A stretch of DNA of 64,000 bases from Desulfosoma sp. (GTDB taxonomy: Bacteria; Desulfobacterota; Syntrophobacteria; Syntrophobacterales; DSM-9756): NCBI GenBank assembly GCA_037481835.1, contig JBBFKW010000013.1, positions 84,576 to 148,575 on the forward strand, written 5' to 3'. Every line of letters starts with the position of its first letter. The first letter of the stretch is position 1. The position numbers and the translations under genes were made by a program. This document shows, piece after piece, positions 17,792-47,821 of the stretch. The notes below the pieces were generated by a model. That model saw nothing but the letters and a program-made list of their open reading frames with translations. It had not been told where the DNA came from and made no database searches.

Positions 17792-18996
17792 ATTGGCGAC
17801 GTAGAGGGCGATTGCAACCGTTGGGCCAGGTTGGCGGATAAGAGGGCGCACTGTTCCAGATCCTCCGCGGTGCCGGCCCCCTTGACTTCCACGATGGGTT
17901 CCACCACTTCCAGTTTCATCCGTTCGGCGAAGGATTCCAGCGCCTTTCGCGCGCCGCCCGCCCAGGCATAGCTTGTGACAAGGCCGAGAAGGCGATTCTG
18001 CAGGAGCTTGTTTTCCAAGAAGCCCAAGAGGGTCTCCATGGGGGGAAACAGCCCCGTGTTGTAGGTGGGGCAGGCCAGGATCAGGCCCTTTGACGTCCAG
18101 ATGTCCGCAATGACGAAGGAGGCGTGGGTACGGGCCACGTCGTGCACAAGAGGCGAAACCCCGCGCTCGGTCAGGGCCCGTGCGACGGCTTCCGCGAGCC
18201 GATAGGTGTTGCCGTACATGGATCCGTACGCCACCACGACGGTCGGATCCGTCTCCTGCAAGCTCCACCGCTCATAAAGGCGCACCGGCAGGGACGGGTC
18301 CTTGCGCCACACGGCCCCGTGTGTCGGGGCCACCACATGGAAAGTTAGCTCACGCAGCTTGTCCACGGCCTTGAGGACCATCTTGCCGTAGCGGGCGACG
18401 ATGTTGGTGAAATAGCGCAGCATTTCCCCGTGCATGAGCTCCCCATCGATTTCGTCGTCAAAAAGGCCTTGGTCGACGGTGCCGAATCCCCCGAAAGCGT
18501 CACCGGAAAATAGCACGCCCGTGGTGAGGTCGAAGGTCATCATGGTTTCCGGCCAGTGGACCATGGGCGTCAGGAAAAACCGAAGCTTGTGGGCTCCCAG
18601 GTCCAAGACGTCTCCGTCGCCGACCTGACGGCACGGGGCGCACGTCCCGTAGAAGGCTTCCAGCATCTCCAGAGTCTTCTTGTTGCCCACCAGGGTCATG
18701 TCGGGAAAGACGGAACGAAGAATTTGGATGGCTCCCGTATGGTCGGGTTCCATGTGGTTGATGACCAGGTAGTCCACGGATTGACCCGGCCGAAGGACCT
18801 GGCGGATCCTATGGAGATGTTCGGCGAGGAAATGGCCTTTGACGGCATCGATGAGGGCGACCTTCTGGTCGACGACCAGGTAGGCGTTGTAGGAGACGCC
18901 GTAGGGAAGAGGCCAGAGGGCTTCGAAGAGGTCCGTTTCGTGATCGTTGACGCCGACCCAATAGGTTTCCGGGGCAATGACAGGGGGTCCGGCCAT
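17788..18996 (-). CDS. fprA: Flavodiiron (A-type flavo)protein
   Basis: GVSYNAYL, NHMEPDH, VHWPETM, FSGDAFG, PTHG and flavodoxin YGSMYGNT motifs; AAGGAG RBS. Confidence 0.93.
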   Translation of the reverse strand: MAGPPVIAPETYWVGVNDHETDLFEALWPLPYGVSYNAYLVVDQKVALIDAVKGHFLAEHLHRIRQVLRPGQSVDYLVINHMEPDHTGAIQILRSVFPDMTLVGNKKTLEMLEAFYGTCAPCRQVGDGDVLDLGAHKLRFFLTPMVHWPETMMTFDLTTGVLFSGDAFGGFGTVDQGLFDDEIDGELMHGEMLRYFTNIVARYGKMVLKAVDKLRELTFHVVAPTHGAVWRKDPSLPVRLYERWSLQETDPTVVVAYGSMYGNTYRLAEAVARALTERGVSPLVHDVARTHASFVIADIWTSKGLILACPTYNTGLFPPMETLLGFLENKLLQNRLLGLVTSYAWAGGARKALESFAERMKLEVVEPIVEVKGAGTAEDLEQCALLSANLAQRLQSPSTSPM

Positions 18997-19257
18997 GGCG
19001 GGCTCCTTTCTCTGCAGGCTCAGATGGCTGAAGCGATTCACGTGCTCATAACACAAAGGGTTCGGCGGAAAAAGGGTCGGCGAATTTTTCTTTCCCGAAA
19101 AGACAGGCTGTGGCAAAAAGGCCTGCCGATTTTACGGCGCTTCGGCCGCGCTCTTGCATCGCGGCCAAAGGGACTTAAGTTAGCGACCAGACCTTCCGAT
19201 CACATAGCTGAAGCGGCCATTCCCGCTCCAATCTCGGATGGTGGAAAGGAACACATC

Positions 19258-19989
19258 ATGCGCTCCGTCACGTGGATGATCACGGCGATGCTTGTCGTCT
19301 TCGGGGGTATTTCTTCCGCTCACGCCTTGCAGAGTGCCACGGACCTTGTCGAGAAGGCCCGGAAAGACTCCATCATGTACCGCAGGGTCGCCCTATACAG
19401 CGAAGCCCTGGTTTTGGATGCCGGCCTCGTGGACGCCTTGAGGGAAAGAGGAATTCTCTATTACTACCAGGGGAAACTCCGGGAAGCCTACGACGACCTC
19501 ACGGCCTATTTGGAAAAGGGGGGACAAGACGTCCGCGGCGTCCTCTTTCGTGCACTGGTGTCCGTGAAGCGCGAAGACTGGGAAAACGCTTTAACTGACC
19601 TGAATCGTGCGTGCGCTCTGGATCCCAAAAGGAGCGACATCCTCAGCCATCGCGCCGCGGTGCTGTACAAACTGGGACGGACCGCAGAGGCCGAAAAGGA
19701 CGCGGCGGCCGTCCTCGCCCTCCATGACGATCCGGCCGCCATGGCACGGGCCCTGACCGTGCGGGGAAACATCCACGCGGATCGCGGTAACGCGCTCTCG
19801 GCGCGGGAAGACCTCCGCCGGGCGGCGTCCATGGACCCCACTTTGGGCATTTTCGGCACTTGGGGGGACATTCTCAGTCCCGAACAGGCAAGCCGGATCG
19901 GTCTTCTGGGTTTGATCGTGCTGCCGGCCTTCCTCATCTTCCGGATCCGCCTGCCCAAGCCCACGCGCAAAGATCCGCCGCGGTTGTAA
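19258..19989 (+). CDS. Exported TPR-repeat protein with C-terminal membrane anchor
   Basis: Signal-peptide-like N-terminus (AHA), several TPR units, hydrophobic IGLLGLIVLPAFLIF followed by a basic tail; AAAGGA RBS. Confidence 0.8.
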   Translation: MRSVTWMITAMLVVFGGISSAHALQSATDLVEKARKDSIMYRRVALYSEALVLDAGLVDALRERGILYYYQGKLREAYDDLTAYLEKGGQDVRGVLFRALVSVKREDWENALTDLNRACALDPKRSDILSHRAAVLYKLGRTAEAEKDAAAVLALHDDPAAMARALTVRGNIHADRGNALSAREDLRRAASMDPTLGIFGTWGDILSPEQASRIGLLGLIVLPAFLIFRIRLPKPTRKDPPRL

Positions 19990-20129: not shown

Positions 20130-23100
20130 TCATTGCCGAGCAGCGGAAGTGTCGGGCTGCTGTTCGGGAGCCGGCGGGTTTGGGATGACGACGTGGCGGC
20201 GCACAACGATGGCACAGGCTCTGGCCACGTTGGCTTTCATGGAGTGGAGCACGCGGATCGACCGCTCCACCCATTCCATGACCGAAGCGCGCGAGACCCC
20301 GGGGACGGGGCTCGCCAGGGACCGTTCCGCATTGGCCCGCGCGGCTCGTATCAGATCATCAATGGATTCATCAAGCTGGCGCCGGGCCGGGGCGATGAGG
20401 GTTTCCAAGTGGGCCGCGACACGTTCCGGATCCCTTCGGGCGGCAGACAGAATGCGCCACGCGTCTTCGAAGAGAGACCGTGCGGAATGAATCCGAGCGA
20501 GGTCTATCCCGTTTTGTCCGGCTGCCACCAAAAGCCGGTCACAGTATTTCATGAGGTCTTTGGCCGTTTTTCCGGTGAAGCCCCGGCTTGCAGCCTCGGC
20601 GGCGACATGGGAAATCATCGCCAAATCGTCCAGGAAAGACATGTAGTTCATGGCCGGAGAAAGCGGCGTAAAGGGGCCGAGCCGAACATGGGCAATATTT
20701 TCTCGTCGCGTCACATGGCGAGCGGCTCCGCCGGGGCTGGCGTAAGGGCCCTCCACGGCGGCATTGACCCGTGATTGGATTCGGGCCATCTCTTCCGCTA
20801 GAGCGGCTTTTCGGGCTGGATCCGTTTCCATGACGAACCGTCGGTGGATGTCGTCCAGCTGGAGTTCCAAGCGGGCTCGCAGTGTTGGGTCGGACGAGAG
20901 CCGGCGCAGTTCGTCCAGCCGTTCAGTGACCCTTTCCATGGGAACGCCCGCGTCCCGAGCGTAACGTTCCACGGTCTCCCGAGGGGTGCCTTCCCGGAGC
21001 ATCCGGGCCAGGGTATTGAGTTCCGTTTCTCGGACCATGCGCTGCTCCACTTCGCGGGCCGCACGGCCTGGAAGATCGGCAAAGAAGTGGAGACGCCGCG
21101 GGTCGGAAAAGATGTCGGCATCCAGCAGCTGACGCCATGCGGATCCATACCGTCTTTCCATTACGGTTATGGCGTAGTTGCGATAGAAGGTGGCGTCGGG
21201 TCCCAAGAAGCTGATATCCACATCGCTGGTCATGGCGTTGGTGCCGGTCCGTTGCATGTGGGGGGGCCCGATGGTCCGGCCCGTGAGTCCCGGGCCCAGT
21301 TCGCTTGCCGCATTTTGCATTTCCTCCCTCAACAATTCAACTTGGCGCAGCCGCCAGGCCTGCATCCGGTTCATGACTTCCACCCCTTGATCCCCGGACC
21401 GCGCCAAAGCGCGGGCCACATCGGACCATTTGCCGCCGTGGAGGACGATGACCGCACCGGCGTTCCCGCCCATTTCATTGAGCTGGCGGGCCACCAAGGC
21501 GGCGTATTCCTGAGCGGCCTGGCTTCCTTCCCCGAGAGCGCGCCGCATCAAAGCGGCGTGTTCCGCGATCTGAGCCGCGGCTCTGTGTCGAGTGATGTCG
21601 GGAAACAGGCGGGCGACGCTGTCTGAGTCCCGCATGAGCTCTCGAGAGAGGCGGCTTTGCATCTCCGGGGCGGCCCTTTGAAAAACCTCCGCGCCGGCAC
21701 GGCGCCCTCCGGATCGAAAAGCACTTTTGATAGCGTCCCCCAGTAGGGGCACAAAGCCCACGAGGGCCATGACCGTCTGAAGCTTCCCTTCGCGGCCTCC
21801 CGTCTGCCACATTTTGTGAATACCGGCGGCCACATCGCGGGCGTCTGCAATCTGCCCCACGATGGGAATGCATCCCACGAGAATCTGCCCGGTTGTTGCA
21901 GCGACTGAGGGTTCCTCGAACCAATCGCCGAAAATGGCGCCCACGGCGAATTCTTCCACAGGGTTCAGGCCCGTGGAGTATTCCGTGTGGCGCCACCCCT
22001 CGGGGGTGCTTTCAAGCCATGCCCCGTCGGATGTGAGGATCTGTTCCACCTCCACTTGGGTGCCGCGCCGGAGGATATAGCCGTACCCGTCATCGTTGGG
22101 GCTGGTCAGATCCCTGAGGTGCACCTGGGGATCCAGTTCGTAGATATGCAGCCAATTGTCCGGAGCGCGCAAAACGACACGAGCTCCACGGAGCCGGAAA
22201 AGCCTTGCGAGCATTTCCCGCCGGCCCCGACTGTCGTTGTAATATCCATGCAATTCGCCGATTTCCCATCCGACGCGCACCGTGGTGTTCCACAATCGGC
22301 CGTGGATTTCGCCGATCACGCGACCGCGCACATCATGGAAGTGCCCGCCCATCTGGCGCCTGAGCTCAAGCATTTCCTCGAGGGTTTTCAACTGGGCGTG
22401 GACCAAAACCCTCTCATAATCAAGCCAGAAGCGCTGGATGGACATCACGTCCCGGAACCGCACACGACCGTTTTCGTGGGGGAATTGCCATTGACCCGGG
22501 CCCCAGCGGTAAATGAGCAAGGGCTGTGGCGGGTATCCGTCGGGAATGGTGAGGATCATGGGAAAGCTGATGAGTTCCCGGTAAAGTCTCTGTTTGTAGA
22601 GGCGCACCTCGGCCGGTGCTTCGGCTTCGGTTCCCACGACGTCTTCCGCCAGAACGCGGTCGGTGGGGATGACGAGAAAGCGATTCTCCCGGTCGATGGC
22701 CATTTGGCGGCCCGCCTGTTCCAGGAGCCGTTCTCGACGACGGACGTCTGTGGACAAGATGGACGAACGGATCGGATCAATGAGTCGCTCAAGGCGTTCC
22801 ACTTCACGCCGCGCATCCAAGCCGCGTTGGATCTGCCGGACCTGGTCCTGGGAAAGGACGGAGACCAGGTGGGGAAAATCGCGGTTGAGGACTTCCTGTG
22901 CGTCGATTCGCGCCGGGGCGGGCGCCGCGCGCCCGGAGGATCGACGGCCGTGATCTTTCATCACGACCGAAGGCTTCCCTTCACCTAAAATGTTTTGCGC
23001 GACGGGCCTGTTTCCGGCCGAAAAAGACTTGTCCGGGATGGCGTGCGTTTCGTTCGAGCTCATGGCATCCAATGCCTCCGCGATATGCTCGGCTTGGATT

Positions 23101-24353
23101 TCCAAGGGGTCATCGGGGTGACTGACGGCAAGGTTCCATCCCAGGGTCCGGGCGGCGACGGATCCTTCCGCGTGCTGGACGACGTGGACGAGTTCGTGGG
23201 CCAGAAGCCGACGGCCTTGGGAATTTTGGGGAGTGTAGAGGCCGTTTCGAAAATAGATGTCTCTGCCCCACGTGAACGCTCGAGCTCCCACGGTTTGAGC
23301 CAAGGTGTCCGATCGGGCGTCCTGATGGATTCTGACGGGCGACAGGTCTGCACCTAGATGATCTTCCATGTCGTGACGCAGGCCCAGGTCCAAAGCCGAA
23401 CCACGCCCTTCGGACCACTCCAAGGCCCGCATCACGACGGCCGCGATGGGTGCCGACAGCTCCGGTGCGTTTTCCTTCTTTCGCTGCAAGGGGGCGAAGG
23501 GTTCCGGAGTGGGCGGGCCGCCGATGGGATGGGGCGAACCGGGCCCGAAGCCCCATTCGGAGGGAAGGAGGGCACCGAGGTCCACGTGGGCCCCAAACAT
23601 GACACTGTCCGGGCCGGTATAAAGTTCGACGTGAAGCCAATCCACACCGGGGATGGGCACAGGACGGCCGTTGAGGAGGGGGAGCACCCGGTTTCGTGCT
23701 GAAGGATTGGAAAGCACCCCCGCCAAGGTTCCCCCCCCGATTACGGCGAAGGCACTGACCACCATCGCCCTTTCTCCGGGAGAAGCATGGCCCCAGACCC
23801 CCAAGGCATGGTCTCTCGCCGATTCCTGCAAATTTTCCAGCATGCGGGCTACCGGCTCTGTAGCCGCCAAAGCGCGGGCCACGTCGCCCAACGTTCCTTC
23901 GCGGGGTGGGGACGGACCCGGGGAAGGCGCCCGCACGGAAGTGCCCTGAGACGGGGTTGGGGGCTGCGTGAGGGAAGGCAGCCATGGGGCGGTTTCCACC
24001 CTTTCGGCGCCTTCCATTACAAGGTTGTGCAGGCGTGTTGGATCCAGTTGCTCCGCCATGAGCCATTCAATGCGTCGCTCAATGTCCGGATCCAGCTCCA
24101 GTCTCAAGGATGAAAGCCCCAAATGATAACGGGAAAACGGTTCGGGGGGCTGCAGCACGGAGGAGACTCCCAAGGTCAGTCGCGGTGCAAAGGAAGCCGA
24201 TGTTGGTCCGTCGTCGGGCGAGCGCTGGAGGACCGCTCCGGGAGAGCCTGAAGCTCGGCACGGGCGACTGCCTTTCCGGCCGATTCCTAAAGCGGCGGTA
24301 TCTTTCGTTTGTGAGCCTCTCGTGGGTCTTTTGTCATGATTCAGGGAGGGCAT
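20130..24353 (-). CDS. DUF4157 (eCIS core domain) polymorphic effector, 1407 aa, with pre-toxin-like segment and putative nucleotidyltransferase C-terminus
   Basis: MEDHLGADLSPVRIH...ARAFTWGRDIYF...LLAHELVHVVQ (~23175-23395); GCIPIVGQIADARD...LVGFVPLLGDAIK; GTNAMTSDVDISF. Confidence 0.85.
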   Translation of the reverse strand: MPSLNHDKRPTRGSQTKDTAALGIGRKGSRPCRASGSPGAVLQRSPDDGPTSASFAPRLTLGVSSVLQPPEPFSRYHLGLSSLRLELDPDIERRIEWLMAEQLDPTRLHNLVMEGAERVETAPWLPSLTQPPTPSQGTSVRAPSPGPSPPREGTLGDVARALAATEPVARMLENLQESARDHALGVWGHASPGERAMVVSAFAVIGGGTLAGVLSNPSARNRVLPLLNGRPVPIPGVDWLHVELYTGPDSVMFGAHVDLGALLPSEWGFGPGSPHPIGGPPTPEPFAPLQRKKENAPELSAPIAAVVMRALEWSEGRGSALDLGLRHDMEDHLGADLSPVRIHQDARSDTLAQTVGARAFTWGRDIYFRNGLYTPQNSQGRRLLAHELVHVVQHAEGSVAARTLGWNLAVSHPDDPLEIQAEHIAEALDAMSSNETHAIPDKSFSAGNRPVAQNILGEGKPSVVMKDHGRRSSGRAAPAPARIDAQEVLNRDFPHLVSVLSQDQVRQIQRGLDARREVERLERLIDPIRSSILSTDVRRRERLLEQAGRQMAIDRENRFLVIPTDRVLAEDVVGTEAEAPAEVRLYKQRLYRELISFPMILTIPDGYPPQPLLIYRWGPGQWQFPHENGRVRFRDVMSIQRFWLDYERVLVHAQLKTLEEMLELRRQMGGHFHDVRGRVIGEIHGRLWNTTVRVGWEIGELHGYYNDSRGRREMLARLFRLRGARVVLRAPDNWLHIYELDPQVHLRDLTSPNDDGYGYILRRGTQVEVEQILTSDGAWLESTPEGWRHTEYSTGLNPVEEFAVGAIFGDWFEEPSVAATTGQILVGCIPIVGQIADARDVAAGIHKMWQTGGREGKLQTVMALVGFVPLLGDAIKSAFRSGGRRAGAEVFQRAAPEMQSRLSRELMRDSDSVARLFPDITRHRAAAQIAEHAALMRRALGEGSQAAQEYAALVARQLNEMGGNAGAVIVLHGGKWSDVARALARSGDQGVEVMNRMQAWRLRQVELLREEMQNAASELGPGLTGRTIGPPHMQRTGTNAMTSDVDISFLGPDATFYRNYAITVMERRYGSAWRQLLDADIFSDPRRLHFFADLPGRAAREVEQRMVRETELNTLARMLREGTPRETVERYARDAGVPMERVTERLDELRRLSSDPTLRARLELQLDDIHRRFVMETDPARKAALAEEMARIQSRVNAAVEGPYASPGGAARHVTRRENIAHVRLGPFTPLSPAMNYMSFLDDLAMISHVAAEAASRGFTGKTAKDLMKYCDRLLVAAGQNGIDLARIHSARSLFEDAWRILSAARRDPERVAAHLETLIAPARRQLDESIDDLIRAARANAERSLASPVPGVSRASVMEWVERSIRVLHSMKANVARACAIVVRRHVVIPNPPAPEQQPDTSAARQ

Positions 24354-24464: not shown

Positions 24465-27404
24465 TCATTTCTTTTCCGGCTTCAGCCAAAGGCTGATTGC
24501 CATGACGGCCAAGGCGGCCAGAACAGGCAGCACAAACCAGAGGTTCCGGAAAAACAGCCCCGTAGCCCCACAGGCCAGCAAGGCCGCCACGCTCGAGACG
24601 ACGAAAATCGGATAGATTCGAGGTTCATGTCTTTGAGCGTGGATCAGGTGGTAGACGAAAGCCAACGGTGTTCGCAAAACCCAGCGCGGCATCCGCCGGG
24701 AGAAAAAGCCTCCCATGCGCTTTCGTCCCTGGAGGGCGTTCCGAAAGATGCCCCATACCAAGAGGTAGGTCTGGCAGGCGTATTCGGCGAGAATGTGCGC
24801 CGGTACGGCTGCGTTGGGGCCCACGACCGTCTGGGAACCCATGGCCTTTTCGTGGAGGTCGGCGCCGCAGTCTTTGACCGCCGCTCTTGCCTGGGCGGCC
24901 CTCTCTTTGGCTCGGGCTTCCACGGCCGTTTGGTTGGTGCCCGAATTCACGCCGGTTGCGTCCGAGATGGTCCCCCACGTGATTTCCTGGAAGTAGAGAT
25001 CCTCGTAGAGGGTTCCCAAGTCCCCACACACGGCGCTGTACTGGGCCGCCGTGATGAAACGGTCCCGAAAGGCCGTAAGCTTTTCCATCCAGGCGGTTTT
25101 CTCGATATCTTCACAGGGTGCCTGCGGCCGCGTATCCAGCAGGTCTCTCCAGGCGCGGAGCAACCCTTTCTTGTGCGGCAGGGGGCAGCCCTCAAAATGG
25201 GCGTCCAGGGTTTCCATGGTGATGACGTCGGGAAGGTTCCAGCGCTGCCGCCACAGGCGCTCCCGAGCGCTCGCGTCGAGAAGACTGCGCACGATTTGGC
25301 AAATTCCGTCCAGCCTTCCCCAAAGGATGTCATTGGCGCGCCAATCACGTCGGAAAAAGGCGGCGAAGTGAGCCATATCATCGCCTGTGACTTTCGACGC
25401 GGGAGCGAGGGCGCTCAGACCGATCTGGGCGTCTTTCGGGCTGATCCGTACGTATTCGATCTCGTCCAGTTCGTGGATCCGAGCGGCGAACTCCAACGGG
25501 TAAAAGGCGCGCTCCAAAATGACGAAATCGGCAATGGGGTCTCCGGCTTCGGGGATGGATCGAACAATCAGGGACAAAGCTTCATGAACCACCGTAAGGA
25601 TGGTCCTTTCAGTGCCTCGGGGCGCCGGGAGCCGCTCCAACCGGCTCGGTTCCGCCTGCGTGATCCAATGCCACGCATCAAATGCGGCTCGAGAGAGAAT
25701 TTCCGACCCGAGCGGTCCTGCTTGGCGGTCGGCGACGAGACGGACATGCATCGCGGGATCCGTTGCAGCGGGTGCCGAGGGGAGGCCGTCCACGAGGGGG
25801 CGCCAGATGGGGTTTTGCGCATCCACAAAAGCGGCGAAGGCTTTGAGCACAAGATCCGCCGTCATCCCTTCGCCGCCGTGTGTCCTTTCGAAGAGGGTGT
25901 CCCGGAGCAGGAAGAGCCGGTTTCGGATCATCTGGAGCGCCTTGATCACCCTGCCCACGGCTTGAACCGCTTCGAGCAGGCCCTGGGGAGCGGGGCCGCC
26001 TGCATCATCGAGGCGTTCGTAGAGGTGATAGAGCCCATGAAAGGCGCAGCGCACATGCCATTCCACGTCGTACGGAAGGAGCTGGGGCACGGACGCCGCC
26101 GTCAGGTCCCGGGGCGGTTCCAAAGTGTGGGTGAAGTGCAGAAGCATCTGCCGAAGAGCATCGAAAAGGCGCTTTCGAACGGGATCCTTGATTTCCGTTT
26201 TGGCCGAAGGGACGTCGTCGCTGTCCGAAACCATGAGCGTGCATAGGCCGTCGATACGGACCCTGCGGTAGACTTCAAAAGAGGTGCCGTCGGCGGTTGG
26301 ACCGGTCGAGGGAGTTTCTCCGCGGGCGATCTGAAGGTAGTTTTCCTTGATGCGCCGGAGCCAGCGGATTCGGGCATTGTGCGCTTTCAGGTTTTCCAGG
26401 TCTTCTCCGATGCTTTCATGGGACGGGATGGTGCTCAGCGAAGCCACGGCCACCCGGAAAGGGTTTTGAAGGCGCCGGGATGCGTCGTCGGTGAGCGCGG
26501 TGAAATGCTCGGGGTCGGGCTCCACGTAAAACAGGCGCCGATCCACGAGCCTATGGGGCATCCGGTAGAAGATGGCCTCCAGGACGGGACCGAAAGGTTT
26601 GTTGTCCAAAACGCCTCCATCCACGTACACATGATGGCGCGGTTTGAGACCGCTCGCCGCCTCCAGCGCGTCCCGAACTTTTTCGCGCCGGTCTTCGGGC
26701 AATTGGTCCAGGGAAAATGGAGGGAAAGCCACAGGAAACGTGGAGGTGATTCGGGCTACGGAGGCGAGGATGCAGGCCCGCAGGGACACATCGACTTCTT
26801 TGCCGGACGGCACGTGCCCTAGGCCGAGCATCTTCCGCCCCGGGCGGTGCTGCAGTCGGAAGACGGTGCGATGGGTCTTGTCGTCGATGCGTCCGCCCAG
26901 CGAATCCCAGGATGTGCTCACAATGCCTTCCAGGTTCGTCCCGGTGATGAAAACATCCATTTCGCCGGGGCTGGCATCACGGACATCGGTCGGGGTCAGG
27001 ATGCGCTGAAAGGCTTCTTCCAGCCTCTTTTGGTAATAACCCTCGCCGTCCAGAAGCGAGACGGCCTCGTCCGCTGCGGACACCGGGCGCATGAGTCGCC
27101 CGAGATCCCCGTGTTTTCTCCACAGATCGGCGGTTGAGGTGAAATCGCCTCCCGATTCCAGAGCGGCGGCGAGGAACAGACCGTTGATTCCTCCCGCCGA
27201 GGTTCCCGCCACCACATCCACAACGGCATCGGCGTCCAGCAGCTGGAGCAGAGGCCCGAAGGGCCCGTGCCCCCTCACCAGATCGAAGAAAGCCCGCGTG
27301 ACCCCGTTTTCATAGACGGCCAAGGAGACGCCGCCGTACAGCACCAGGGCGATGCGAATCTCCCGACTGCGGGTTCCCTGTGCTCGTGTGCCTTGAAGAG
27401 CCAT
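24465..27404 (-). CDS. Patatin-like phospholipase (DUF3376-type) with C-terminal TM helices
   Basis: LVLYGGVSLAVY glycine loop, GTSAG nucleophile elbow, DGG catalytic Asp, HFAAFFRRDWRANDILWGRLDG; hydrophobic C-terminus. Confidence 0.9.
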   Translation of the reverse strand: MALQGTRAQGTRSREIRIALVLYGGVSLAVYENGVTRAFFDLVRGHGPFGPLLQLLDADAVVDVVAGTSAGGINGLFLAAALESGGDFTSTADLWRKHGDLGRLMRPVSAADEAVSLLDGEGYYQKRLEEAFQRILTPTDVRDASPGEMDVFITGTNLEGIVSTSWDSLGGRIDDKTHRTVFRLQHRPGRKMLGLGHVPSGKEVDVSLRACILASVARITSTFPVAFPPFSLDQLPEDRREKVRDALEAASGLKPRHHVYVDGGVLDNKPFGPVLEAIFYRMPHRLVDRRLFYVEPDPEHFTALTDDASRRLQNPFRVAVASLSTIPSHESIGEDLENLKAHNARIRWLRRIKENYLQIARGETPSTGPTADGTSFEVYRRVRIDGLCTLMVSDSDDVPSAKTEIKDPVRKRLFDALRQMLLHFTHTLEPPRDLTAASVPQLLPYDVEWHVRCAFHGLYHLYERLDDAGGPAPQGLLEAVQAVGRVIKALQMIRNRLFLLRDTLFERTHGGEGMTADLVLKAFAAFVDAQNPIWRPLVDGLPSAPAATDPAMHVRLVADRQAGPLGSEILSRAAFDAWHWITQAEPSRLERLPAPRGTERTILTVVHEALSLIVRSIPEAGDPIADFVILERAFYPLEFAARIHELDEIEYVRISPKDAQIGLSALAPASKVTGDDMAHFAAFFRRDWRANDILWGRLDGICQIVRSLLDASARERLWRQRWNLPDVITMETLDAHFEGCPLPHKKGLLRAWRDLLDTRPQAPCEDIEKTAWMEKLTAFRDRFITAAQYSAVCGDLGTLYEDLYFQEITWGTISDATGVNSGTNQTAVEARAKERAAQARAAVKDCGADLHEKAMGSQTVVGPNAAVPAHILAEYACQTYLLVWGIFRNALQGRKRMGGFFSRRMPRWVLRTPLAFVYHLIHAQRHEPRIYPIFVVSSVAALLACGATGLFFRNLWFVLPVLAALAVMAISLWLKPEKK

Positions 27405-27418
27405 TTCTTCACTCCTTG

Positions 27419-29458
27419 TCACTCCGCCTCGAGAAGCACCGCGGGTATTTGGCGGCTCAGCTTTGTGTATTCCAGTTTCAGCCCTTCCATGACGTCTTGC
27501 CAGGATACGGGCCGGGCGGCTTCCAAGGCCAACACGGCGGCGGCCAGCACGGCGTTTCGGATATGACCGCCGCACACGTCCGCGTGGGCGGCCAAAAGGT
27601 TCATCTGAGCCGGGTGCAAGGCGTGTTTTTCGCCAAGGTGGGTTTTCCACAAGGCCCGGCGCTCTTCCGGACCGGGAGCCGGAAAATCCACCACGACGTC
27701 GATGCGGCGGCTGAAAGAGGAGTCGAATCGCGTGCGGCTGTTGCTCGTCAGAAGGATGATGCCTCTGTAGTCTTCGATCCTCTGCAGGAGGTAGTTGGTT
27801 TGCGCATTGGCGAACCGGTCGTTGGCGTCTTTCACGTCCGTCCGCTTGCCGAAAAGGGAATCGGCTTCATCGAAAAGCAGAATCACGTCCGCCTGTTCGG
27901 CGGCGGCAAGAAGCCGGGAAAGCTGTTTTTCCGTGTCGCCAACGTATTTGCTTGTTACGGCGGCAAGGTCCACGCGATACAAGGGGAACCCCAGGCGGGT
28001 GGCGAGCCAGGAGGCCGCCAGGGTTTTCCCCGTTCCGGAAGGACCCACGAAAAGGGCCCGGACCCCGGCTTTATAGGAGGCTTGCATGGTAATTCCCAGG
28101 ATGGGACCCAAGTCTTCCCGATGGCGGCACCGGGCTTCCAGAAGGTCGAGTTTGCGGCGCGTGGGTTCCGAAAGGACCAGAGCCGATTCCGGCACCCGAT
28201 CCGGAATGGGCTGCGCCAGAGTTTCCAGGCCGTCCCCGTGAAAAGCCGCTCGGCGGATGTCTTCCTTGTCGATTTGCGACCGCCCTCGCACCTGTGCTTC
28301 CATAAGGGCCAGTGCACTCAAACGGCGGATGCGATCGACGCCGTGCAGATGCGTCGCCGCGAGGGATTCCGCAGCCTCAGGATCGATACCGGATTCCAGC
28401 CACAGTCTCCGGCGTTCTTCCTTTCCCGGAAGAGGCGCCCACCATTGGGCCAGGGGGCCGCAGTCCGCCTCCGCAACCCCGTCCGGGCCGCAGACGGCCA
28501 AAACCGGCCCTGAATAGCCTTCAATGGAGGGCAGCCGGTGGACGAGTCCAGGTCCGGATTCCAAAACAAACACGGGAAGAAGCCGCTCCAGGCGGCAGTA
28601 AAGTCCGAAGCCGAGAAGCGGCAGGAAGCCTCCGGGAACATAGACGGCGCGCCGCCCCAAAGCCTGGGCGATGAGTTCCGCGGCCAATCGGGCATCGCCT
28701 CCCGACGAGGATCGGATGAGAAGTCCGGCGCTGGAGTGTTCCAATGCCCGGGCATGAGCCCGGGCTTCTCGCCGAAAGGTCTCCGGCATGTTTGGAGGCA
28801 GGGACGTGGGGGCAAGAGACGTTCCCGGCCAGGGTTTTCCAACGCCTCGCAGGGACAGGGCCAAAGGAAGGGGAATGGTCAACTGCTGATCGCACAGGGG
28901 CAGACTGTCGTCCGTTCGGTGCAATAAACCGTTTCTAGCGGCCGGTCCCGCCGCCAGAAGCGCCGTCGGGGAATCGCCTTCGGCAAGGTGCAGAAAAGCG
29001 CCCAAAGTCTGAGCCATCAATCCCACGCTGGGGCGGGCCGATCCGATGTGCGGCTGCAAAAAGGACACGATGTCAGCCGTATGGGGATCCTCCTCGCAAG
29101 CCAGACAGAGGGCGGCCGCAAGGGTTTCCAGAGGGGATAGAGACAGGTCTTCGCCGAGCGTCGCCAGCCGGGCGTCTTCAGGCCGTGGGCGCCGCAGGGA
29201 TTCCCGGATGGCCTCACGCCATTGGGCCACATAGGGAAACCGCTGTAAGACGCCGTGTAGCGCCGATTCCTGAGGGCGTTCCGGTGTTCGGCCCGTCTTT
29301 TCAAAATACAGAAATCCGCAGGGCCACAGGGCGAGGAAAGCCAGAGACGCTGATTCGGCGCCGACCGTGACGTGAGCATCGGGCAGGCCTTTTTCGGGCC
29401 GCTTCCAGCCCGAACCGCTTCCGACGTTATGATGGTTGGGAATGGTTTGAGGCCTCAT
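27419..29458 (-). CDS. eCIS AAA+ ATPase (Afp15/Pvc15-like); start uncertain
   Basis: GPSGTGKT Walker A, SKYVGDTEK, LLFDEADSLFGKR Walker B, DRFANAQTNYLLQRIE. Confidence 0.92.
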   Translation of the reverse strand: MRPQTIPNHHNVGSGSGWKRPEKGLPDAHVTVGAESASLAFLALWPCGFLYFEKTGRTPERPQESALHGVLQRFPYVAQWREAIRESLRRPRPEDARLATLGEDLSLSPLETLAAALCLACEEDPHTADIVSFLQPHIGSARPSVGLMAQTLGAFLHLAEGDSPTALLAAGPAARNGLLHRTDDSLPLCDQQLTIPLPLALSLRGVGKPWPGTSLAPTSLPPNMPETFRREARAHARALEHSSAGLLIRSSSGGDARLAAELIAQALGRRAVYVPGGFLPLLGFGLYCRLERLLPVFVLESGPGLVHRLPSIEGYSGPVLAVCGPDGVAEADCGPLAQWWAPLPGKEERRRLWLESGIDPEAAESLAATHLHGVDRIRRLSALALMEAQVRGRSQIDKEDIRRAAFHGDGLETLAQPIPDRVPESALVLSEPTRRKLDLLEARCRHREDLGPILGITMQASYKAGVRALFVGPSGTGKTLAASWLATRLGFPLYRVDLAAVTSKYVGDTEKQLSRLLAAAEQADVILLFDEADSLFGKRTDVKDANDRFANAQTNYLLQRIEDYRGIILLTSNSRTRFDSSFSRRIDVVVDFPAPGPEERRALWKTHLGEKHALHPAQMNLLAAHADVCGGHIRNAVLAAAVLALEAARPVSWQDVMEGLKLEYTKLSRQIPAVLLEAE

Positions 29459-29505
29459 GGCTTTACCTCGCAAGGGACCTTTCCCGACCGTGCGCGGGAG
29501 AATCT

Positions 29506-31746
29506 CTAGTCGCTGTAATGAAACGAAACCACACGGGCGAGCCACGGCACCCAGCCGGGATTGATGTCCAATCCCCACCGCCGGATAGCCGCATCCGCCT
29601 GTTCGAGACGAAAAAACACGTCCACATGGGTGGGACTCAGGACCACCCGGGCGGGCCGAAACACAAGCCGCCGCAGGGTCCATCCGACTCGACGGTGGAG
29701 AAACAAGGCGACGATGCACCGCACGGCCCTGAAGAAGCCTTCGAGGAGGGGCGTGAGGGGAATGTTCGGGACGTGTGCGCATTCGTCATCGGACCTGGCC
29801 GACAGGTCGTGTGATAGCCCGAAAACCAAGCGGCCCGTGCGATCGGCCAGAACGAAGGAACCCCTTTGGGTCCGAAAGGTTTGGAACCCCAGCCGCCTCA
29901 TTGTCTGCGCTCGTTCCGTCAGGAGATCCACCCACGGCTCCGGGGGATGGAAGGAAAAATCGTCTGGAAGATCTTCCCCAAGGCATGAACCGCTGGGGAC
30001 CAACGCCCAATGGGGATCGTCATGGGGAAGGGGAAGAATTCGGCCCAAGAACCCGAGAAGGCACTCGCCCACGGCATGCCCTGATGGAAGGGGCCAGTCG
30101 AGGGAATCCTTCAGGCCGAGGAGCTCGAAAAGTCCGAGGAGGAAAAGGAAACCGCCGCAGGGGCTCCGGAGTCCCCCAAGAGACGGGAGGATGTCTCGAG
30201 ATTTTGCACCGTCTTGGACAAAGATCCTGTCGTGAAATGCCGCGGCGGCAAAAACACGCTCCCGTGCCGGCGAAGATCTCAAGGTCGGAGGGTGCGCCGG
30301 GGGGGCTTCGCCAGGGTGATGCCCAGCTCCCTGAATGTCTCGGGGATGGATTGGCGGAGGTCCTGCGACGCTCGGGGGCCGAGGAAAAAGCCCTTGCTGT
30401 GGGTCGGTGCCTTGAGTTCCGGCTCCCTTTGAGGGCGAAGCCTTGAGGCTGTGTTCCATGGGAATAAAGCCCTCTTCCGTCGTCGTGTCAGCGGTGGATC
30501 CATGGGGATCGGTGTGTTCAAAAAGATCTTCGGTCTTGAGAAAACCCTCCTCGGCCTGGGAGACGGCGGGCAGAAGGGGGGCTTCTTTTCGGAGCCTGCC
30601 AATGCCGGGGGCGGCGTAGGTTTTCCTTTCCGCTTGTTTTCTTTGGAGGGCTCGGGTCCTCATTGGAGATGCGCGATCGGCCCCTATTACCGGGATGGGC
30701 GCCCCGGGTTGGGAAAAAGACGGCGCTCCCGGACCGTCCCAGTGTCCGTTTTGAGCCCCGTGGCCACAAGGCTGCGCCGTCATCGTAACGGGCGGGTGAT
30801 TGTGCTCGTTCGGGGGCGGAACCTGGTTGTTGGCCTTGTCCGGTAAAGGGCTTTTCGCAGGGAAGAGAGCCGGATCGGAAACTTCCGGCCTTTCCAAAAG
30901 AAAATCCTTCCATGATCCTTTCCGTGGCCGAAAAGCCGGGCCGTGCGGCGCGCCGTGATCGCTTGTCGCCCGCGGAGACAAGCTCTGGCGCTCGAACACG
31001 TTTTTTCGATGGGACGGGTGGCGAAGCCATAAGAGCAGCGCAAGGAGCCACAGGGTTCTCGGATCCCTAACACCCCACCGGCCGATTCGGCTTTGGATGC
31101 ACCGGCGTAGACTTTCGTCCAGACCCATGAGGAAACCCGCCAGGGTGGAACCTTTCGAGAACTGAAGGCTTTGCAGTTCCGGAGGATCTTGGAAACCGAA
31201 GAGGCCGAGCAGTTCCCGGCCGTCCTCGATTGACAAGGCGTCCAAGAGGCATTCCAGGCGATGGGCGGCGAGAAGAACCGCCAAGACACGGCCCATGGCG
31301 GCCTGCGGAAGGGAGCAGCGGCCCGCCGTTTTCATGAGCCGGGGGAGTTCGTGGGTGCCGTATCCCCCGTTCCAATCCGGCACGGCCCCTTTCCAGAACC
31401 ACTCCCGGGGAACCCGACCTCGGGCCAGTTGCAGGGCGAGGAAAGCCATGGGTTCCAGGGCATCTTGGAACCATACGACAGGAGATCGGGCGGCATCGGG
31501 GGAAGTCGCCGCAACGGCCTGCGCGGCCAAGAGCCGACCGGTTTCGTCCAGCTGCTGCGCCGTGGCGAGAAACCCTAAAGGCCCTTCGGGAAAACGGAGC
31601 CTCAAGGATCGCACAATCACCAGGGCGTTCGGGGGGATGCCGGGGAAAGACGCCGTGCGCAAGGCGTTTTCCACGCCGTGCACGATTCGAGACACGGCGG
31701 CCAATCGGGATCCCCGCACAGTGAGTTTCCGAATCCGGCAGTCCAT
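29506..31746 (-). CDS. eCIS protein, putative tape-measure-like (Afp14 position)
   Basis: Directly upstream of the ATPase; ordered N- and C-termini (RRWGLDINPGWVPWLARVVSFHY) around a Pro/Ala-rich low-complexity middle. Confidence 0.6.
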   Translation of the reverse strand: MDCRIRKLTVRGSRLAAVSRIVHGVENALRTASFPGIPPNALVIVRSLRLRFPEGPLGFLATAQQLDETGRLLAAQAVAATSPDAARSPVVWFQDALEPMAFLALQLARGRVPREWFWKGAVPDWNGGYGTHELPRLMKTAGRCSLPQAAMGRVLAVLLAAHRLECLLDALSIEDGRELLGLFGFQDPPELQSLQFSKGSTLAGFLMGLDESLRRCIQSRIGRWGVRDPRTLWLLALLLWLRHPSHRKNVFERQSLSPRATSDHGAPHGPAFRPRKGSWKDFLLERPEVSDPALFPAKSPLPDKANNQVPPPNEHNHPPVTMTAQPCGHGAQNGHWDGPGAPSFSQPGAPIPVIGADRASPMRTRALQRKQAERKTYAAPGIGRLRKEAPLLPAVSQAEEGFLKTEDLFEHTDPHGSTADTTTEEGFIPMEHSLKASPSKGAGTQGTDPQQGLFPRPPSVAGPPPIHPRDIQGAGHHPGEAPPAHPPTLRSSPARERVFAAAAFHDRIFVQDGAKSRDILPSLGGLRSPCGGFLFLLGLFELLGLKDSLDWPLPSGHAVGECLLGFLGRILPLPHDDPHWALVPSGSCLGEDLPDDFSFHPPEPWVDLLTERAQTMRRLGFQTFRTQRGSFVLADRTGRLVFGLSHDLSARSDDECAHVPNIPLTPLLEGFFRAVRCIVALFLHRRVGWTLRRLVFRPARVVLSPTHVDVFFRLEQADAAIRRWGLDINPGWVPWLARVVSFHYSD

Positions 31747-37473: not shown

Positions 37474-38361
37474 TTACCTCATTGAGCCGGTCAACCAGAC
37501 CAGCTCGGCTGTGGAAAAGGAAAACAGGCGAAGGTCGTTGAAAACCTCCACATCCCGGGACGTGTCCCGGACCACCGGTGGCCCCGGATGGGCCGGGATG
37601 ACCACCCGCGCGAGGAAAAGCTCCGTCCCGTCTTGGTCCGGTGTGTGTTCGGGAAGACGGCGCAGCCGGGAGCCTCCATTGTCCCACAGGGTGGCTTCCG
37701 TCCAGGCTTCCCGTAGCTTGTAATCCACGATCCGTTGGCGCCGTTCGGCCGGGTCGGGGATGGCGTCCAGAGAAGGAAAGGGCCTTTGGGGAACGGCAGG
37801 GTCGGCTTCTTCCCGGAGGACAAGACTCAGTCGGGTGCCGTCTCGGATGCGGGACGGCGCCACCCCGTCCAATTGATCCAGATCGCCCGTGGCGAAAGCC
37901 GGTCGAGTGCCGTGGAGGCAACAGACGGCGGCGATGAAGACATCGGCCCACACGCCCGCCGGGAAATCTTCGGTCCCCTCGTGATAGGCGTTGGACAGTT
38001 TGTCCCGCCCGACGGCATCCGCCGCCTGTTGGTCGAACCACAAGCCCAGGCGCAGGCACAAGGGACGGCGCACCTCAATGAACCGTCCCAAACGGTCCAG
38101 GGCCAACCCGGGCGTCACCACAAGTTGTTCAGGATGCTCGCCTTCCGGCGGCGCGACGCGAGCCTGCCGGGCAGGAACCCATTGGACTTCAAGACCGGCG
38201 ACGGTGCCCGAACCGTGAAGGGAGGCGGCAAGGCGTGCGAGTCGACTGCGATGATAGGTCTGCTCGTCCTGAAAATCTTCCGCGTCCAGCAGCATGCCCG
38301 TGGCGTAATAAAGCCGATCCGGCACCACGGGGCGGATCAAAGGATCGTCCGTGCGGCTCAT
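37474..38361 (-). CDS. eCIS accessory protein, 295 aa
   Basis: RLYYATGMLLDAEDFQDEQTYH...GTVAGLEV...PGLALDRLGRFI motif; AAGGAGG RBS; ATGA overlap. Confidence 0.78.
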   Translation of the reverse strand: MSRTDDPLIRPVVPDRLYYATGMLLDAEDFQDEQTYHRSRLARLAASLHGSGTVAGLEVQWVPARQARVAPPEGEHPEQLVVTPGLALDRLGRFIEVRRPLCLRLGLWFDQQAADAVGRDKLSNAYHEGTEDFPAGVWADVFIAAVCCLHGTRPAFATGDLDQLDGVAPSRIRDGTRLSLVLREEADPAVPQRPFPSLDAIPDPAERRQRIVDYKLREAWTEATLWDNGGSRLRRLPEHTPDQDGTELFLARVVIPAHPGPPVVRDTSRDVEVFNDLRLFSFSTAELVWLTGSMR

Positions 38362-42934: not shown

Positions 42935-42937
42935 GGC

Positions 42938-43342
42938 TCAGCTCTCCAAGGTCATGGTCAGGGCCGTCCGGGCCGGCCGATTGGTGCGCCGCAGCCTGTA
43001 GACGATTTCCACGCGGATTCGATCAGGGGTGTCGGCCACGGCTTCCACAAGCACATGATCCACCAGAATTCTCGGTTCCCATTTTTCCAGAGCGTCCAAG
43101 ACGGCATCGTGAATCCGCCGACGGGTGCTCAACGTGTTCGGTTCGTGAACAAAGCGGCCCAGACCTGCGCCGAAAGCCGGACGCATGAGAAGCTCCCCGG
43201 GTTGAGTGAGCAGCACGATGCGGATGCTCTGGCGGACGCTCTCCTCCAAAGAGGGGAAGTGGAGACGCCCGTCCGAATCGGGGACCGGAAGAAGGGGCCA
43301 GCCGATGGGTTCCGGCGGAAGATGGCTCGTCTTTCCAGGCAT
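42938..43342 (-). CDS. GPW/gp25 family baseplate protein (Afp9-like)
   Basis: VRQSIRIVLLTQPGELLMRPAFGAGL...LEKWEPRI. Confidence 0.92.
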   Translation of the reverse strand: MPGKTSHLPPEPIGWPLLPVPDSDGRLHFPSLEESVRQSIRIVLLTQPGELLMRPAFGAGLGRFVHEPNTLSTRRRIHDAVLDALEKWEPRILVDHVLVEAVADTPDRIRVEIVYRLRRTNRPARTALTMTLES

Positions 43343-43433
43343 GCGGATGCGTCCTCCTGAAATGTTGACATTCGCGACGTCAAGAAGCGCCAGACTTTCT
43401 GGTTAGCGCCCAAAAGACCGGCCTACGCCCCTT

Positions 43434-44927: not shown

Positions 44928-45610
44928 ATGTTTCCCGCTCCCGGCGTATAGGTCGAGGCGACCACGGTTGTGGAAATCAGCGTGTTGCATTGGACCACCC
45001 CGCTGAAACTCGCCATGGCCGTATCCACCTGGACCATGCCTGCAGAGATGCTCACCTGGGATGCTTCCACGGAGACGAGGGAGGGGGCTTGAACGGACAC
45101 GCCCGACGGGTCCACGGTGATCGTGTTGCCTGCGGCGCGGCAGGTGATGGTGCCCCCGCCGTTGTCCGTAAGTTCGGCTTCCACTCCGCCGGGTGTGGTG
45201 AGCCGTACCGTCGGGTTTCCCGATGCGGGCTCTTCAATGGCGATGCGCGTCCCGGCCTTTCCCACCAGAGTCCACCGGTCCACGGCGTCCCCGGAGCCGC
45301 CGAGGGTTTCGGGCGCTTCAGCGGCCCCGTTCCACATGGATCCCACCACCACGGGGTAACGCGGATCTCCCCCGATAAAGGTCACGACGACTTCATCGCC
45401 CACGTCCGGAAGGAAAAAGGCACCGCGGTTGGGGCCGGCGAAGGGGACGGCCACACGGGCCCAGACGGGCCCGTTCTGGTGATCGAAGCCGTCGAAGGAC
45501 AGCAGCCGCACCTGGACGCGGTTTCGTCCTTCAGGATCGTCCACCGAAGTCACGTGAGCCAAGTGAGATTGGAGCCACACCGAAGGCTTCCAACCGAGCG
45601 ATCCTTCCAT
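44921..45610 (-). CDS. Baseplate assembly protein V / gp5-like spike (OB fold + beta-repeat)
   Basis: DDPEGRNRVQV, WARVAVPFAG, FFLPDVGDEVVVTFIGGDPRYPVVVGSMWN; Val/Ser-rich beta repeats. Confidence 0.92.
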   Translation of the reverse strand: MEGSLGWKPSVWLQSHLAHVTSVDDPEGRNRVQVRLLSFDGFDHQNGPVWARVAVPFAGPNRGAFFLPDVGDEVVVTFIGGDPRYPVVVGSMWNGAAEAPETLGGSGDAVDRWTLVGKAGTRIAIEEPASGNPTVRLTTPGGVEAELTDNGGGTITCRAAGNTITVDPSGVSVQAPSLVSVEASQVSISAGMVQVDTAMASFSGVVQCNTLISTTVVASTYTPGAGNIW

Positions 45611-45614
45611 GGCG

Positions 45615-46709: not shown

Positions 46710-46800
46710 CGCGGTTCTCTCATCTCAAAGACTTTCTTGCGCATGGGCCTGGGCCTTTGTTGCGATCGACAAAGATGCCGTGCCGAAACGCTGCGGTCCC

Positions 46801-46983
46801 TCATTGGGCAGAAAGGCGGGCGATGCGCCTTTGCCAGTCGAGCACCATTCGGCGCACACGCCGTGCTTCCCCTTCAGGGTCCCGAGGCGTCGTCGGCGCA
46901 GAGCGCGCCTCGGTTCTTTGCGAGCTCTCCGGTTCTTCCACGATTTCCGCCGTGACTTCTTCGAACACGATGGCCACCGTCAT
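46801..46983 (-). CDS. Small eCIS hypothetical protein, 60 aa
   Basis: ATGA overlap with the upstream gene, GAGGAGG RBS; acidic beta-strand N-terminus and Arg-rich helical end. Confidence 0.6.
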   Translation of the reverse strand: MTVAIVFEEVTAEIVEEPESSQRTEARSAPTTPRDPEGEARRVRRMVLDWQRRIARLSAQ

Positions 46984-47819: not shown

Positions 47820-47821
47820 GT

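Follow-up and report, generated by a model that had tools for sequence, protein, structure and literature searches.

A DUF4157-type cargo protein from a Desulfosoma contractile injection system, with a candidate nucleotidyltransferase-like domain outside the catalogued families

Here we report an analysis of the gene at positions 20130..24353 (minus strand) of a 64,000-nucleotide stretch of Desulfosoma sp. DNA (contig JBBFKW010000013.1), a stretch referred to below as the window. The gene starts with ATG, encodes 1,407 amino acids (aa) plus a stop codon, and is the last gene, at the 3′ end, of what a Pfam scan shows to be a complete extracellular contractile injection system (eCIS) cluster (20130-54348, minus strand). 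The original prediction, made from the sequence alone, had described its product as an eCIS-delivered DUF4157 effector with a toxin tip of nucleotidyltransferase (NTase) fold and no adjacent immunity gene. The product is indeed a DUF4157-type eCIS cargo, with a PF13699 match of 97.4 bits against a cut-off of 22, and its C-terminal domain, which is absent from the family databases that we searched, probably works in the manner of an NTase. The narrower assignment, by analogy, to a GlnE/DrrA-like transferase of nucleotidyl (probably AMP) groups is evenly poised. Membership of the Pol-beta superfamily is unproven, since one of its defining features is missing from the family and the others are not conclusive.

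Conservation and predicted fold of the C-terminal domain

Exhaustive searching of 1.84 billion cluster representatives by HMMER with aa 890-1407 returned 103 proteins with E<=1e-3, of which 54 reach E<=1e-10 and 32 reach E<=1e-30; the core shared by the matches corresponds to query residues ~144-400. Family members and their loci are found in Thermodesulfobacteriota, Chloroflexota (Anaerolineales, Chloroflexia and Dehalococcoidia), Actinomycetota (Acidimicrobiia) and Bacteroidota (Portibacter), and the named members are all labelled hypothetical or DUF4157. Conservation was counted in a 101-sequence alignment, with the sequences covering each position as denominator, and centres on the following features.

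21201..21248, minus strand: candidate active-site motif T1036-G-T-x4-S-D1044-V-D1046-x-S-F-x-G1051, where strand 1 ends and on strand 2
21207-21245 (aa 1037-1049), minus strand: GTNAMTSDVDISF, the stretch with the DxD motif
aa 1076-1082, minus strand: LLDADIF
21102..21104, minus strand: D1084, candidate third metal ligand, 40 residues past D1044
aa 1201-1214, minus strand: EGPYASPGGAARHV
20535..20549 (aa 1269-1273), minus strand: KYCDR, the K1269-Y1270-x-x-R1273 motif of the helical subdomain

Conservation of the SDVD motif had been fixed beforehand as a point on which the prediction could fall, and its DxD proved invariant, D1044 and D1046 being Asp in 93/93 sequences. G1051 is equally constant (94/94), and the residues ahead of the DxD vary little: T1036 is kept in 76/93, G1037 in 79/93 (with Ala in 12), T/S1038 in 88/93 and S/N1043 in 91/93. 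The distal Asp of the prediction, which had been sought in LLDADIF, must be placed elsewhere. D1078 is Asp in only 40/98 sequences and D1080, on strand 3, in 50/98 with Glu in a further 6 (56/98 acidic in all), and the near-invariant acid is instead D1084, just after that strand, which is Asp or Glu in 97/98. Further constant positions follow at R1087 (95/98), D1167 (98/101), Q1193 (100/101), N1197 (97/101), Y1204 (99/101), G1208 (97/101), K1269 (98/100), Y1270 (92/100) and R1273 (97/98). As read from the aligned sequences, this pattern of conservation is that of an enzyme active site.

AlphaFold2 models built with a 67-row alignment are confident for both aa 890-1407 (pLDDT 90.1, pTM 0.85) and aa 984-1289 (pLDDT 94.6, pTM 0.91). 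In the latter, a 306-aa model, a long helix (residues 5-36) leads into a strand (49-53) that ends at T-G-T; a short loop is followed by a strand (62-67) with D61 and D63, which correspond to D1044 and D1046, then by a helix (71-86) and a strand (96-99) carrying D1080, with D1084 just past the strand and only helices afterwards. The predicted core therefore has the order alpha-beta-beta-alpha-beta, with DxD on strand 2 and a helical domain next, and the [DE]h[DE]h feature of Pol-beta NTases is present as D1044-V-D1046-I on predicted strand 2. We take this order of elements to be that of a minimal Pol-beta-type NTase core in which a loop replaces the short second helix.

For profile comparison by hhalign, alignments of six NTase families (NTP_transf_2, AbiEii, PolyA_pol, GlnE, RelA_SpoT and SMODS) and of OsmC as a decoy were drawn from relatives' genomes and compared with the 101-sequence family alignment; the cargo protein's own middle domain served as a second decoy.

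NTP_transf_2: score 27.7, P 0.0018, 39 columns, S-D-x-D placed on S-D-x-D and flanking helices aligned
GlnE: score 28.0, P 0.004, 18 columns, DxD in register
Own middle domain (decoy): score 20.4, P 0.1
SMODS: score 17.0, P 0.14
PolyA_pol: score 16.1, P 0.14
RelA_SpoT: score 13.0, P 0.41
OsmC (decoy): score 12.4, P 0.42
AbiEii: score 12.2, P 0.54

Genuine pairs of NTase families score 10.1-39.0 in the same set-up (NTP_transf_2 against GlnE 39.0, SMODS 30.4, PolyA_pol 20.1 and AbiEii 10.1). Column-shuffled NTP_transf_2 templates reached a mean of 9.4 (sd 1.7, maximum 15.7), with 0/100 attaining 27.7; shuffling the family's own columns gave 0/60 at that score, and a reversed template scored 12.0. 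The best profile match is to the minimal nucleotidyltransferases (NTP_transf_2, MNT type), with which the family shares, in register, G-x5-S-D-x-D followed by a hydrophobic strand and a helix. Unlike these enzymes, which are of ~100-130 aa and carry F-G-S-x-x-R-G, the family is without the G-S and has an additional ~200 aa of helices with invariant residues of their own; hhalign sets its T-G on the R-G of that motif and not on the G-S.

A second look at the structural neighbours covered the top 1,000 Foldseek chains for the 306-aa model, 13 of which span the alpha/beta part.

Cid1, 4nku_A: score 5.8, 79 aligned
Cid1, 4nkt_A: score 5.7, 76 aligned (model 10-101, chain 57-164)
GLD-2, 6lbj_A and 6lbk_A: score 4.8 each
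Sulfolobus putative NTase, 2rff: score 4.7, 17% identity
Three OsmC/Ohr proteins: scores 4.6-5.4
Four ribosomal proteins: scores 4.5-4.7
One designed protein: score 4.5

The best-scoring neighbours of the alpha/beta core are the RNA terminal nucleotidyltransferases CutA, Cid1 and GLD-2, which match it through their palm domains and which have a helical domain after the palm, as here; all of the structural scores lie within the range that the tool describes as common. VIA-align gave weak matches to NTase palms and retrieved DrrA over the whole domain, with a poor rmsd. Singly, such neighbours of a predicted model are no proof, but together they repeatedly name the same superfamily, which we regard as modest support.

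The likeness to DrrA extends to the third acid. The AMPylation domain of DrrA is described as DNA polymerase beta-like and similar to glutamine synthetase adenylyltransferase, with a G98-S99-L100-X11-D110 motif, catalytic residues D110 and D112, both on strand 2, together with D150, which is found in a loop, and an active site that becomes ordered only upon target binding (PMC7815794). The 40 residues from D110 to D150 equal those from D1044 to D1084, and D1084, too, sits in a loop that comes right behind a strand. DrrA/SidM of Legionella and GlnE also resemble the family in having a Pol-beta-type core within a large helical domain and S-D-x-D-x-x-F on strand 2, and DrrA is an injected effector, as is proposed for the cargo here. 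On account of the acid spacing, the GlnE profile match and the retrieval of DrrA over the whole domain, we lean towards a GlnE/DrrA-like protein AMPylase.

Weighing the nucleotidyltransferase assignment

A number of results count against placing the domain among the NTases. Pol-beta NTases carry hG[GS] 9-13 residues before the DxD, and this spacing is not found here: T1036-G1037-[TS]1038 stands only 5 residues ahead of D1044, and further upstream there is no well-conserved G/S column (G1029 is G in 19/49 and P1031 is P in 31/65). The G[S/T]-x(n)-DxD signature invoked in the original prediction consequently does not hold as written, its G1037-T1038 being those same residues. With Foldseek, neither model met a PDB structure at E<=0.001 (the best values were E 0.28 and E 0.5), nor did BFVD yield a match at that level (best E 0.085); a phage ‘polymerase nucleotidyl transferase’ ranked sixth there with a non-significant E of 0.5. 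Of the predicted NTase fold, the confident alpha-beta-beta-alpha-beta core with DxD on strand 2 stands, and a significant Foldseek match is lacking. The structural likeness consists of scores and element order. In the profile comparisons, SMODS, PolyA_pol, RelA_SpoT and AbiEii (P 0.14-0.54) do not rise above the decoys, and the signal from the other two families is a short motif of 18-39 columns obtained with test families picked when the motif was known. A Pfam scan of 28 members at E<=10 showed no NTase family among the 25 of 72 families listed, and searches of PADLOC, NCBIfam and PDB profiles gave no NTase match.

Other searches were similarly sparing. The probabilities printed by hhalign are low (15% and 8.5%), and when the GlnE alignment was extended (mact 0.01) the third acid could not be placed reliably. 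The C-terminal domain has no NCBIfam or PADLOC match, and at E<=10 it meets only DUF5817_CT (0.011) and AAA_lid_7 (0.061) in Pfam; in the PDB, phmmer and profile searches matched only designed helical proteins. In the ESM Atlas the best score was 0.85, below the level of more than a lead, with an NTP_transf_2 cluster at rank 25 (score 0.83), and an alignment search of a 5.8-billion protein set returned 9 proteins, none with an NTase Pfam label.

The first alternative keeps an NTase-like fold and changes the substrate: RNA 3′ ends or tRNA would receive the nucleotides, as they do from MenT/AbiEii or terminal nucleotidyltransferases, or the enzyme would synthesise a nucleotide second messenger or alarmone. 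That the top structural neighbours of the alpha/beta core are CutA, Cid1 and GLD-2, and that among the profiles the minimal NTases (NTP_transf_2 type) match most strongly, speaks for such an enzyme; the profiles of AbiEii (P 0.54), SMODS (0.14), RelA_SpoT (0.41) and PolyA_pol (0.14), none of them above the decoys, speak against it, as do the whole-domain match and the third-acid spacing, which favour DrrA and GlnE over RNA or second-messenger enzymes. Judged on fold and profile likeness, an RNA-directed enzyme seems less likely than a GlnE/DrrA-like AMPylase, and we consider a non-protein substrate of any of these kinds unlikely.

Somewhat less probable again is a Mg2+-dependent enzyme of another or new fold (a phosphotransferase, phosphodiesterase or glycosyltransferase) that would have come to resemble NTases in its DxD by convergence. 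The whole domain is without a significant fold match, the spacing from G to DxD is non-canonical, D1080 on strand 3 is variable (Asp in 50/98), and OsmC-like folds fit the same region nearly as well. However, helix, strand, strand with DxD, helix and strand succeed one another and are placed as in an NTase core, hhalign brings the DxD into register with two NTase families at P 0.002-0.004 against P 0.1-0.42 for two decoys, and DrrA was retrieved over the whole domain.

Architecture of the cargo protein and a proposed mechanism

The open reading frame (ORF) is real, an identical 1,407-aa sequence is present in the protein database, and all motifs named in the original prediction were found within a few bases of where it had put them. 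The protein was cut into segments and each was searched against the 110 other proteins gathered, with the following result (all on the minus strand).

aa 1-320 (23394..24353), minus strand: N-terminal region rich in Pro/Ser/Gly/Ala, common to 5/110 proteins, all close relatives
aa 321-425, minus strand: DUF4157 segment, common to 20/110
aa 321-397 (23163..23393), minus strand: DUF4157 / eCIS_core domain (PF13699, formerly DUF4157)
aa 386-390 (23184-23198), minus strand: HELVH, inside the DUF4157 domain
aa 410-422 (23088-23126), minus strand: VSHPDDPLEIQAE
aa 426-820, minus strand: middle region, common to 30/110
~aa 481-816 (21906..22913), minus strand: conserved middle domain without a family match
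aa 817-876 (21726..21905), minus strand: Gly-rich hydrophobic helical hairpin; the segment aa 821-889 is common to 28/110
aa 827-840 (21834-21875), minus strand: GCIPIVGQIADARD, in the hairpin region
aa 864-876 (21726-21764), minus strand: LVGFVPLLGDAIK, in the hairpin region
aa 890-983 (21405..21686), minus strand: helical lead-in to the enzyme domain, all-helical in the model, common to 24/110
aa 984-1289 (20487..21404), minus strand: conserved enzyme core, common to 106/110
aa 1290-1407, minus strand: C-terminal tail, common to 10/110

The DUF4157 core reported in the original prediction is confirmed by PF13699 at aa 321-397 (E 5.4e-28), the sole Pfam domain found in the protein. By composition, aa 1-320 consist of 60% disorder-promoting residues, with 13% Pro, and by analogy they are likely to be a disordered loading signal: in a study of Cgo1 and Cgo2, two proteins carried by AlgoCIS, a disordered N-terminal sequence was necessary for loading and DUF4157 was dispensable (bioRxiv 10.64898/2026.05.27.728243). 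The protein's most hydrophobic stretch, at aa 196-215 (23709-23768, minus strand; 17-aa Kyte-Doolittle mean 2.0), lies within this Pro/Ser/Gly-rich segment. The middle domain conserves the motifs WG, GxxGE, GY..D, PD..LH and GW and has no Pfam or PDB match, and the enzyme core is laid out as an NTase-like alpha/beta subdomain (~aa 988-1089) followed by a helical subdomain. From the way in which the segments are shared, closer relatives have a joint module of middle domain, hairpin and enzyme. In its probably disordered N-terminal region, DUF4157 domain with HExxH, long linker and variable C-terminal effector, the protein resembles Cgo1, Cgo2 and the DUF4157 eCIS-associated toxins (EATs) of Geller et al. 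(2021); like theirs, its gene closes an eCIS operon at the 3′ end and, as is often so among them, no immunity gene accompanies it. Unlike in those proteins, the ‘linker’ here is a conserved middle domain and hairpin that travel with the enzyme domain, with or without DUF4157.

Among 40 homologues scanned against Pfam, 11 have an N-terminal DUF4157, 28 are without any family and 1 has only a weak PI3/PI4-kinase match. A metagenomic protein of 4,086 aa (P0024) has the enzyme domain in its middle (aa 1791-2140) together with a weak PI3/PI4-kinase match (23.5 bits, below the cut-off).

The hairpin had been described as pre-toxin-like. It is highly conserved, with 17-aa Kyte-Doolittle means of 1.66 and 1.57, and its match to DUF4112 (E 0.0098) is below threshold, with 16.5 bits where the cut-off is 23.3; Pfam listed no further family at E<=10 for aa 419-889. 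DUF4112 and PT-TG are families of pre-toxin hairpins; the element here is not a generic pre-toxin linker and is co-conserved with the enzyme domain. To follow it across the family we used a 17-residue window with a mean Kyte-Doolittle value >= 1.6. Such a window occurs in the 300 residues directly upstream of the core in 63/76 members (those with >=260 residues upstream), against 1/74 in the first 300 core residues and 5/60 in the 300 residues further upstream. In the closer subgroup it is the Gly-rich hairpin, and in the distant subgroup (~1,050 aa) a different Ala/Gly-rich hydrophobic segment stands at the equivalent place. This recurrence just upstream of the core is what could be said for a hairpin, possibly with the middle domain, that is itself the harmful, membrane-acting part, the C-terminal domain being regulatory or non-catalytic; we think this very improbable, as the acidic and basic residues kept invariant in the C-terminal domain are of the kind usual in catalytic sites, each arm is short for a membrane span and the hydropathy is only 1.57-1.66. 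Type VI secretion system (T6SS) effectors with N-terminal transmembrane helices, of the prePAAR/Tse6 type, have a toxin domain joined to hydrophobic helices able to insert in the target membrane. Unlike in those effectors, the hydrophobic element here is in mid-protein, immediately ahead of the enzyme domain, and an eCIS serves as carrier; the comparison is one of analogy only.

The mechanism that we infer, including the relationship to NTases, the binding of metal and NTP, the nucleotidyl transfer, the target and the role of the hairpin, would run as follows. The Pro/Ser/Gly-rich aa 1-320 would be the signal by which the neighbouring AAA+ ATPase loads the protein into the tube, on the analogy of Cgo1 and Cgo2 of AlgoCIS, and the DUF4157 HExxH domain would be an accessory part. 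The payload would be a three-part module of middle domain (~aa 481-816), hairpin (aa 817-876) and enzyme domain (aa 890-1340). The last would hold a minimal Pol-beta-type core, in which helix 1 and strand 1, ending in T-G-T, are followed by strand 2 with D1044-x-D1046 and by helix 3 and strand 3, then D1084; a helical subdomain would wrap this core and supply D1167, Q1193, N1197, Y1204, K1269, Y1270 and R1273. D1044, D1046 and D1084 may hold Mg2+ and NTP, and NMP would be passed to a macromolecule of the injected cell, the acceptor most probably being a protein side chain (AMPylation, as by GlnE and DrrA). The hydrophobic hairpin, on the analogy of the T6SS effectors, might anchor the enzyme to the target membrane or carry it across.

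Genomic setting, immunity and target

The structural genes of the eCIS, three tube genes included, fill 38358..54348 (minus strand), and the remaining genes of the cluster lie between them and a convergent gene that closes it.

53752-54348, minus strand: Pvc16-type cap
50479-52908, minus strand: sheath
49895-50335 and 47822-48574, minus strand: tube (gp19 type), two genes
46980-47819, minus strand: CIS_tube
45615-46709, minus strand: GPD hub
44921-45610, minus strand: spike OB domain
42938-43342, minus strand: gp25
40724-42934, minus strand: Baseplate_J
38358-40859, minus strand: P2_I
29506-37467, minus strand: three large ORFs without a Pfam family (746, 1,251 and 631 aa)
27419..29782, minus strand: AAA+ ATPase with a winged-helix domain, an Afp15/Pvc15-like loader (PF00004, E 6.7e-23; PF22977)
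24465..27650, minus strand: patatin-like phospholipase with DUF3376, 1,061 aa (PF01734, PF11856; TIGR03607, E 7.3e-113)
18556..19989, plus strand: convergent TPR gene, no candidate for immunity (TPR families, E down to 9.5e-15)

The patatin gene stands between the AAA+ ATPase and DUF4157 genes, is syntenic in Desulfacinum infernum and is without a DUF4157 domain of its own; its product is a probable second cargo. The gene of interest starts 111 bp after it on the same strand. The 631-aa ORF among the three without a family has a sub-threshold CIS13 match (25.7 bits against a cut-off of 370), and among the three there may be a receptor-binding protein or tail fibre, with consequences for what the target is. 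Past the TPR gene, ordinary metabolic genes at 16495-19116 mark the end of the island; they include a flavodiiron-type ODP/flavodoxin protein (17788-19116, minus strand) and a radical SAM protein (16495-17529, plus strand). A search of 19700-20400 revealed neither an intrinsic terminator nor a sigma-70 promoter.

There is no other PF13699 match in the 3.63-Mb genome, the cargo protein being the only one. Of 21 genomes queried with the enzyme core (its own and 20 relatives), 3 yielded the gene and the other 18 did not, and it thus behaves as an accessory cargo. The nearest named homologue is an ‘eCIS core domain-containing protein’ of D. infernum, with 75% identity over aa 984-1407 and 80% over the core. 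A search with a 10-sequence alignment found six related loci, at four of which DUF4157, sheath, Pvc16 or AAA genes adjoin the homologue. In an Anaerolineales metagenome-assembled genome (MAG; L003:1266-9332, plus strand) a 2,688-aa homologue has two DUF4157 domains and a weak Peptidase_M91 match before the enzyme domain, and its neighbours are a DUF922 gene, another DUF4157 gene, Pvc16 and sheath. A Chloroflexia MAG (L004:1482-10566, plus strand) has a 1,425-aa homologue without DUF4157, flanked by three separate DUF4157 genes (672, 364 and 547 aa), so that DUF4157 and the payload module can be split between genes. In an Acidimicrobiales MAG (L007:5823-9305, plus strand) the 8 kb around a 1,160-aa homologue contain neither an eCIS nor a DUF4157 gene; UvrD helicase, S41 peptidase, PriA and SAM synthetase are encoded beside it.

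The original prediction that no immunity gene is adjacent agrees with our results: only 140 bp separate the cargo gene from the convergent TPR gene, and there is no conserved candidate across the seven loci, where, among 171 ORFs of >=50 aa within 3.5 kb (the window and six loci), only sheath and DUF4157 genes recur. Two ORFs of this region (19506-20069 and 19591-20274, both minus strand) are antisense to the Pfam-supported TPR gene and are treated as spurious, and the TPR gene itself has no similarity to the one D. infernum downstream ORF compared. The further step, from the missing immunity gene to a eukaryotic target, fails. In the 2021 survey, many tested eCIS toxins are without immunity genes, some of them toxic to E. 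coli (Geller et al., PMC8213781), and its supplement file 8 lists D. infernum DSM 9756, the nearest named host, as an anaerobe and thermophile (60 °C) that reduces sulfate and comes from a marine petroleum reservoir; moreover, eCIS cargo is probably loaded unfolded by the ATPase (bioRxiv 10.64898/2026.05.27.728243). The case also shows that the lack of an immunity gene is no ground for supposing a target to be eukaryotic.

The same absence could be taken to mean that the protein is not an injected toxin and acts inside the producer, in assembly, regulation, lysis or programmed death, as has been proposed for some cytoplasmic contractile injection systems; yet even with the oil-reservoir host at 60 °C and the Acidimicrobiales homologue without an eCIS gene within 8 kb added to it, this is scarcely credible beside a layout of N-terminal region, DUF4157 and C-terminal domain and a 3′-terminal position that fit AlgoCIS cargo of demonstrated loading, and beside the eCIS linkage of 4/6 related loci.

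Taking the GlnE/DrrA-like AMPylase further, one may speculate that the protein is the founding member of a contractile-injection cargo family, spread over at least four phyla, in which such an enzyme is hard-wired to its own membrane-insertion hairpin. It would be delivered into the envelope of a prokaryotic target, the hairpin taking the enzyme across or onto the cytoplasmic membrane, and would be active only on meeting its target, hence the lack of an immunity gene; eukaryotic prey is implausible because the producers include thermophilic anaerobes. That the DrrA active site becomes ordered on target binding offers no more than a precedent for an effector doing no harm to its producer. We regard this extended scheme as doubtful.

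The class itself, in which an eCIS operon ends with a gene for DUF4157 cargo whose toxin tip varies, is already known. The tip constitutes a new family: Pfam, NCBIfam and PADLOC do not contain it, sequence searches reach no relative of solved structure, and its motif spacing is not the canonical one of NTases. Titles and abstracts yielded no eCIS effector described as an NTase or AMPylase, and the main text of a 2024 machine-learning paper on EATs has no word in nucleotidyl-, AMPylat- or adenylyl- and no mention of NTase. The family may have escaped the 2021 eCIS survey. In that catalogue the D. infernum operon spans 128640-161993 and starts with the patatin gene EJ47DRAFT_00890 (PMC8213781). 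The D. infernum orthologue lies at ~124427-128608 of the same 161,993-base contig (coordinates converted from those of locus L002), just outside the catalogued operon, and the neighbouring tag EJ47DRAFT_00889 was not found in the part of the catalogue's supplement text that was searched.

Unknown eCIS toxins stem chiefly from DUF4157 cargo, and engineering of the particles into vehicles for protein delivery is under way. In this context the gene provides a well-modelled, uncatalogued enzyme family with a clear and testable candidate active site (D1044, D1046 and D1084). It is a good experimental candidate for a new injected toxin, a solid candidate and not an extraordinary one, and it will not surprise specialists. 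It may prove to be the first AMPylase-type effector of an eCIS, and the conserved hydrophobic element beside the enzyme may show how an injected cargo reaches its compartment.

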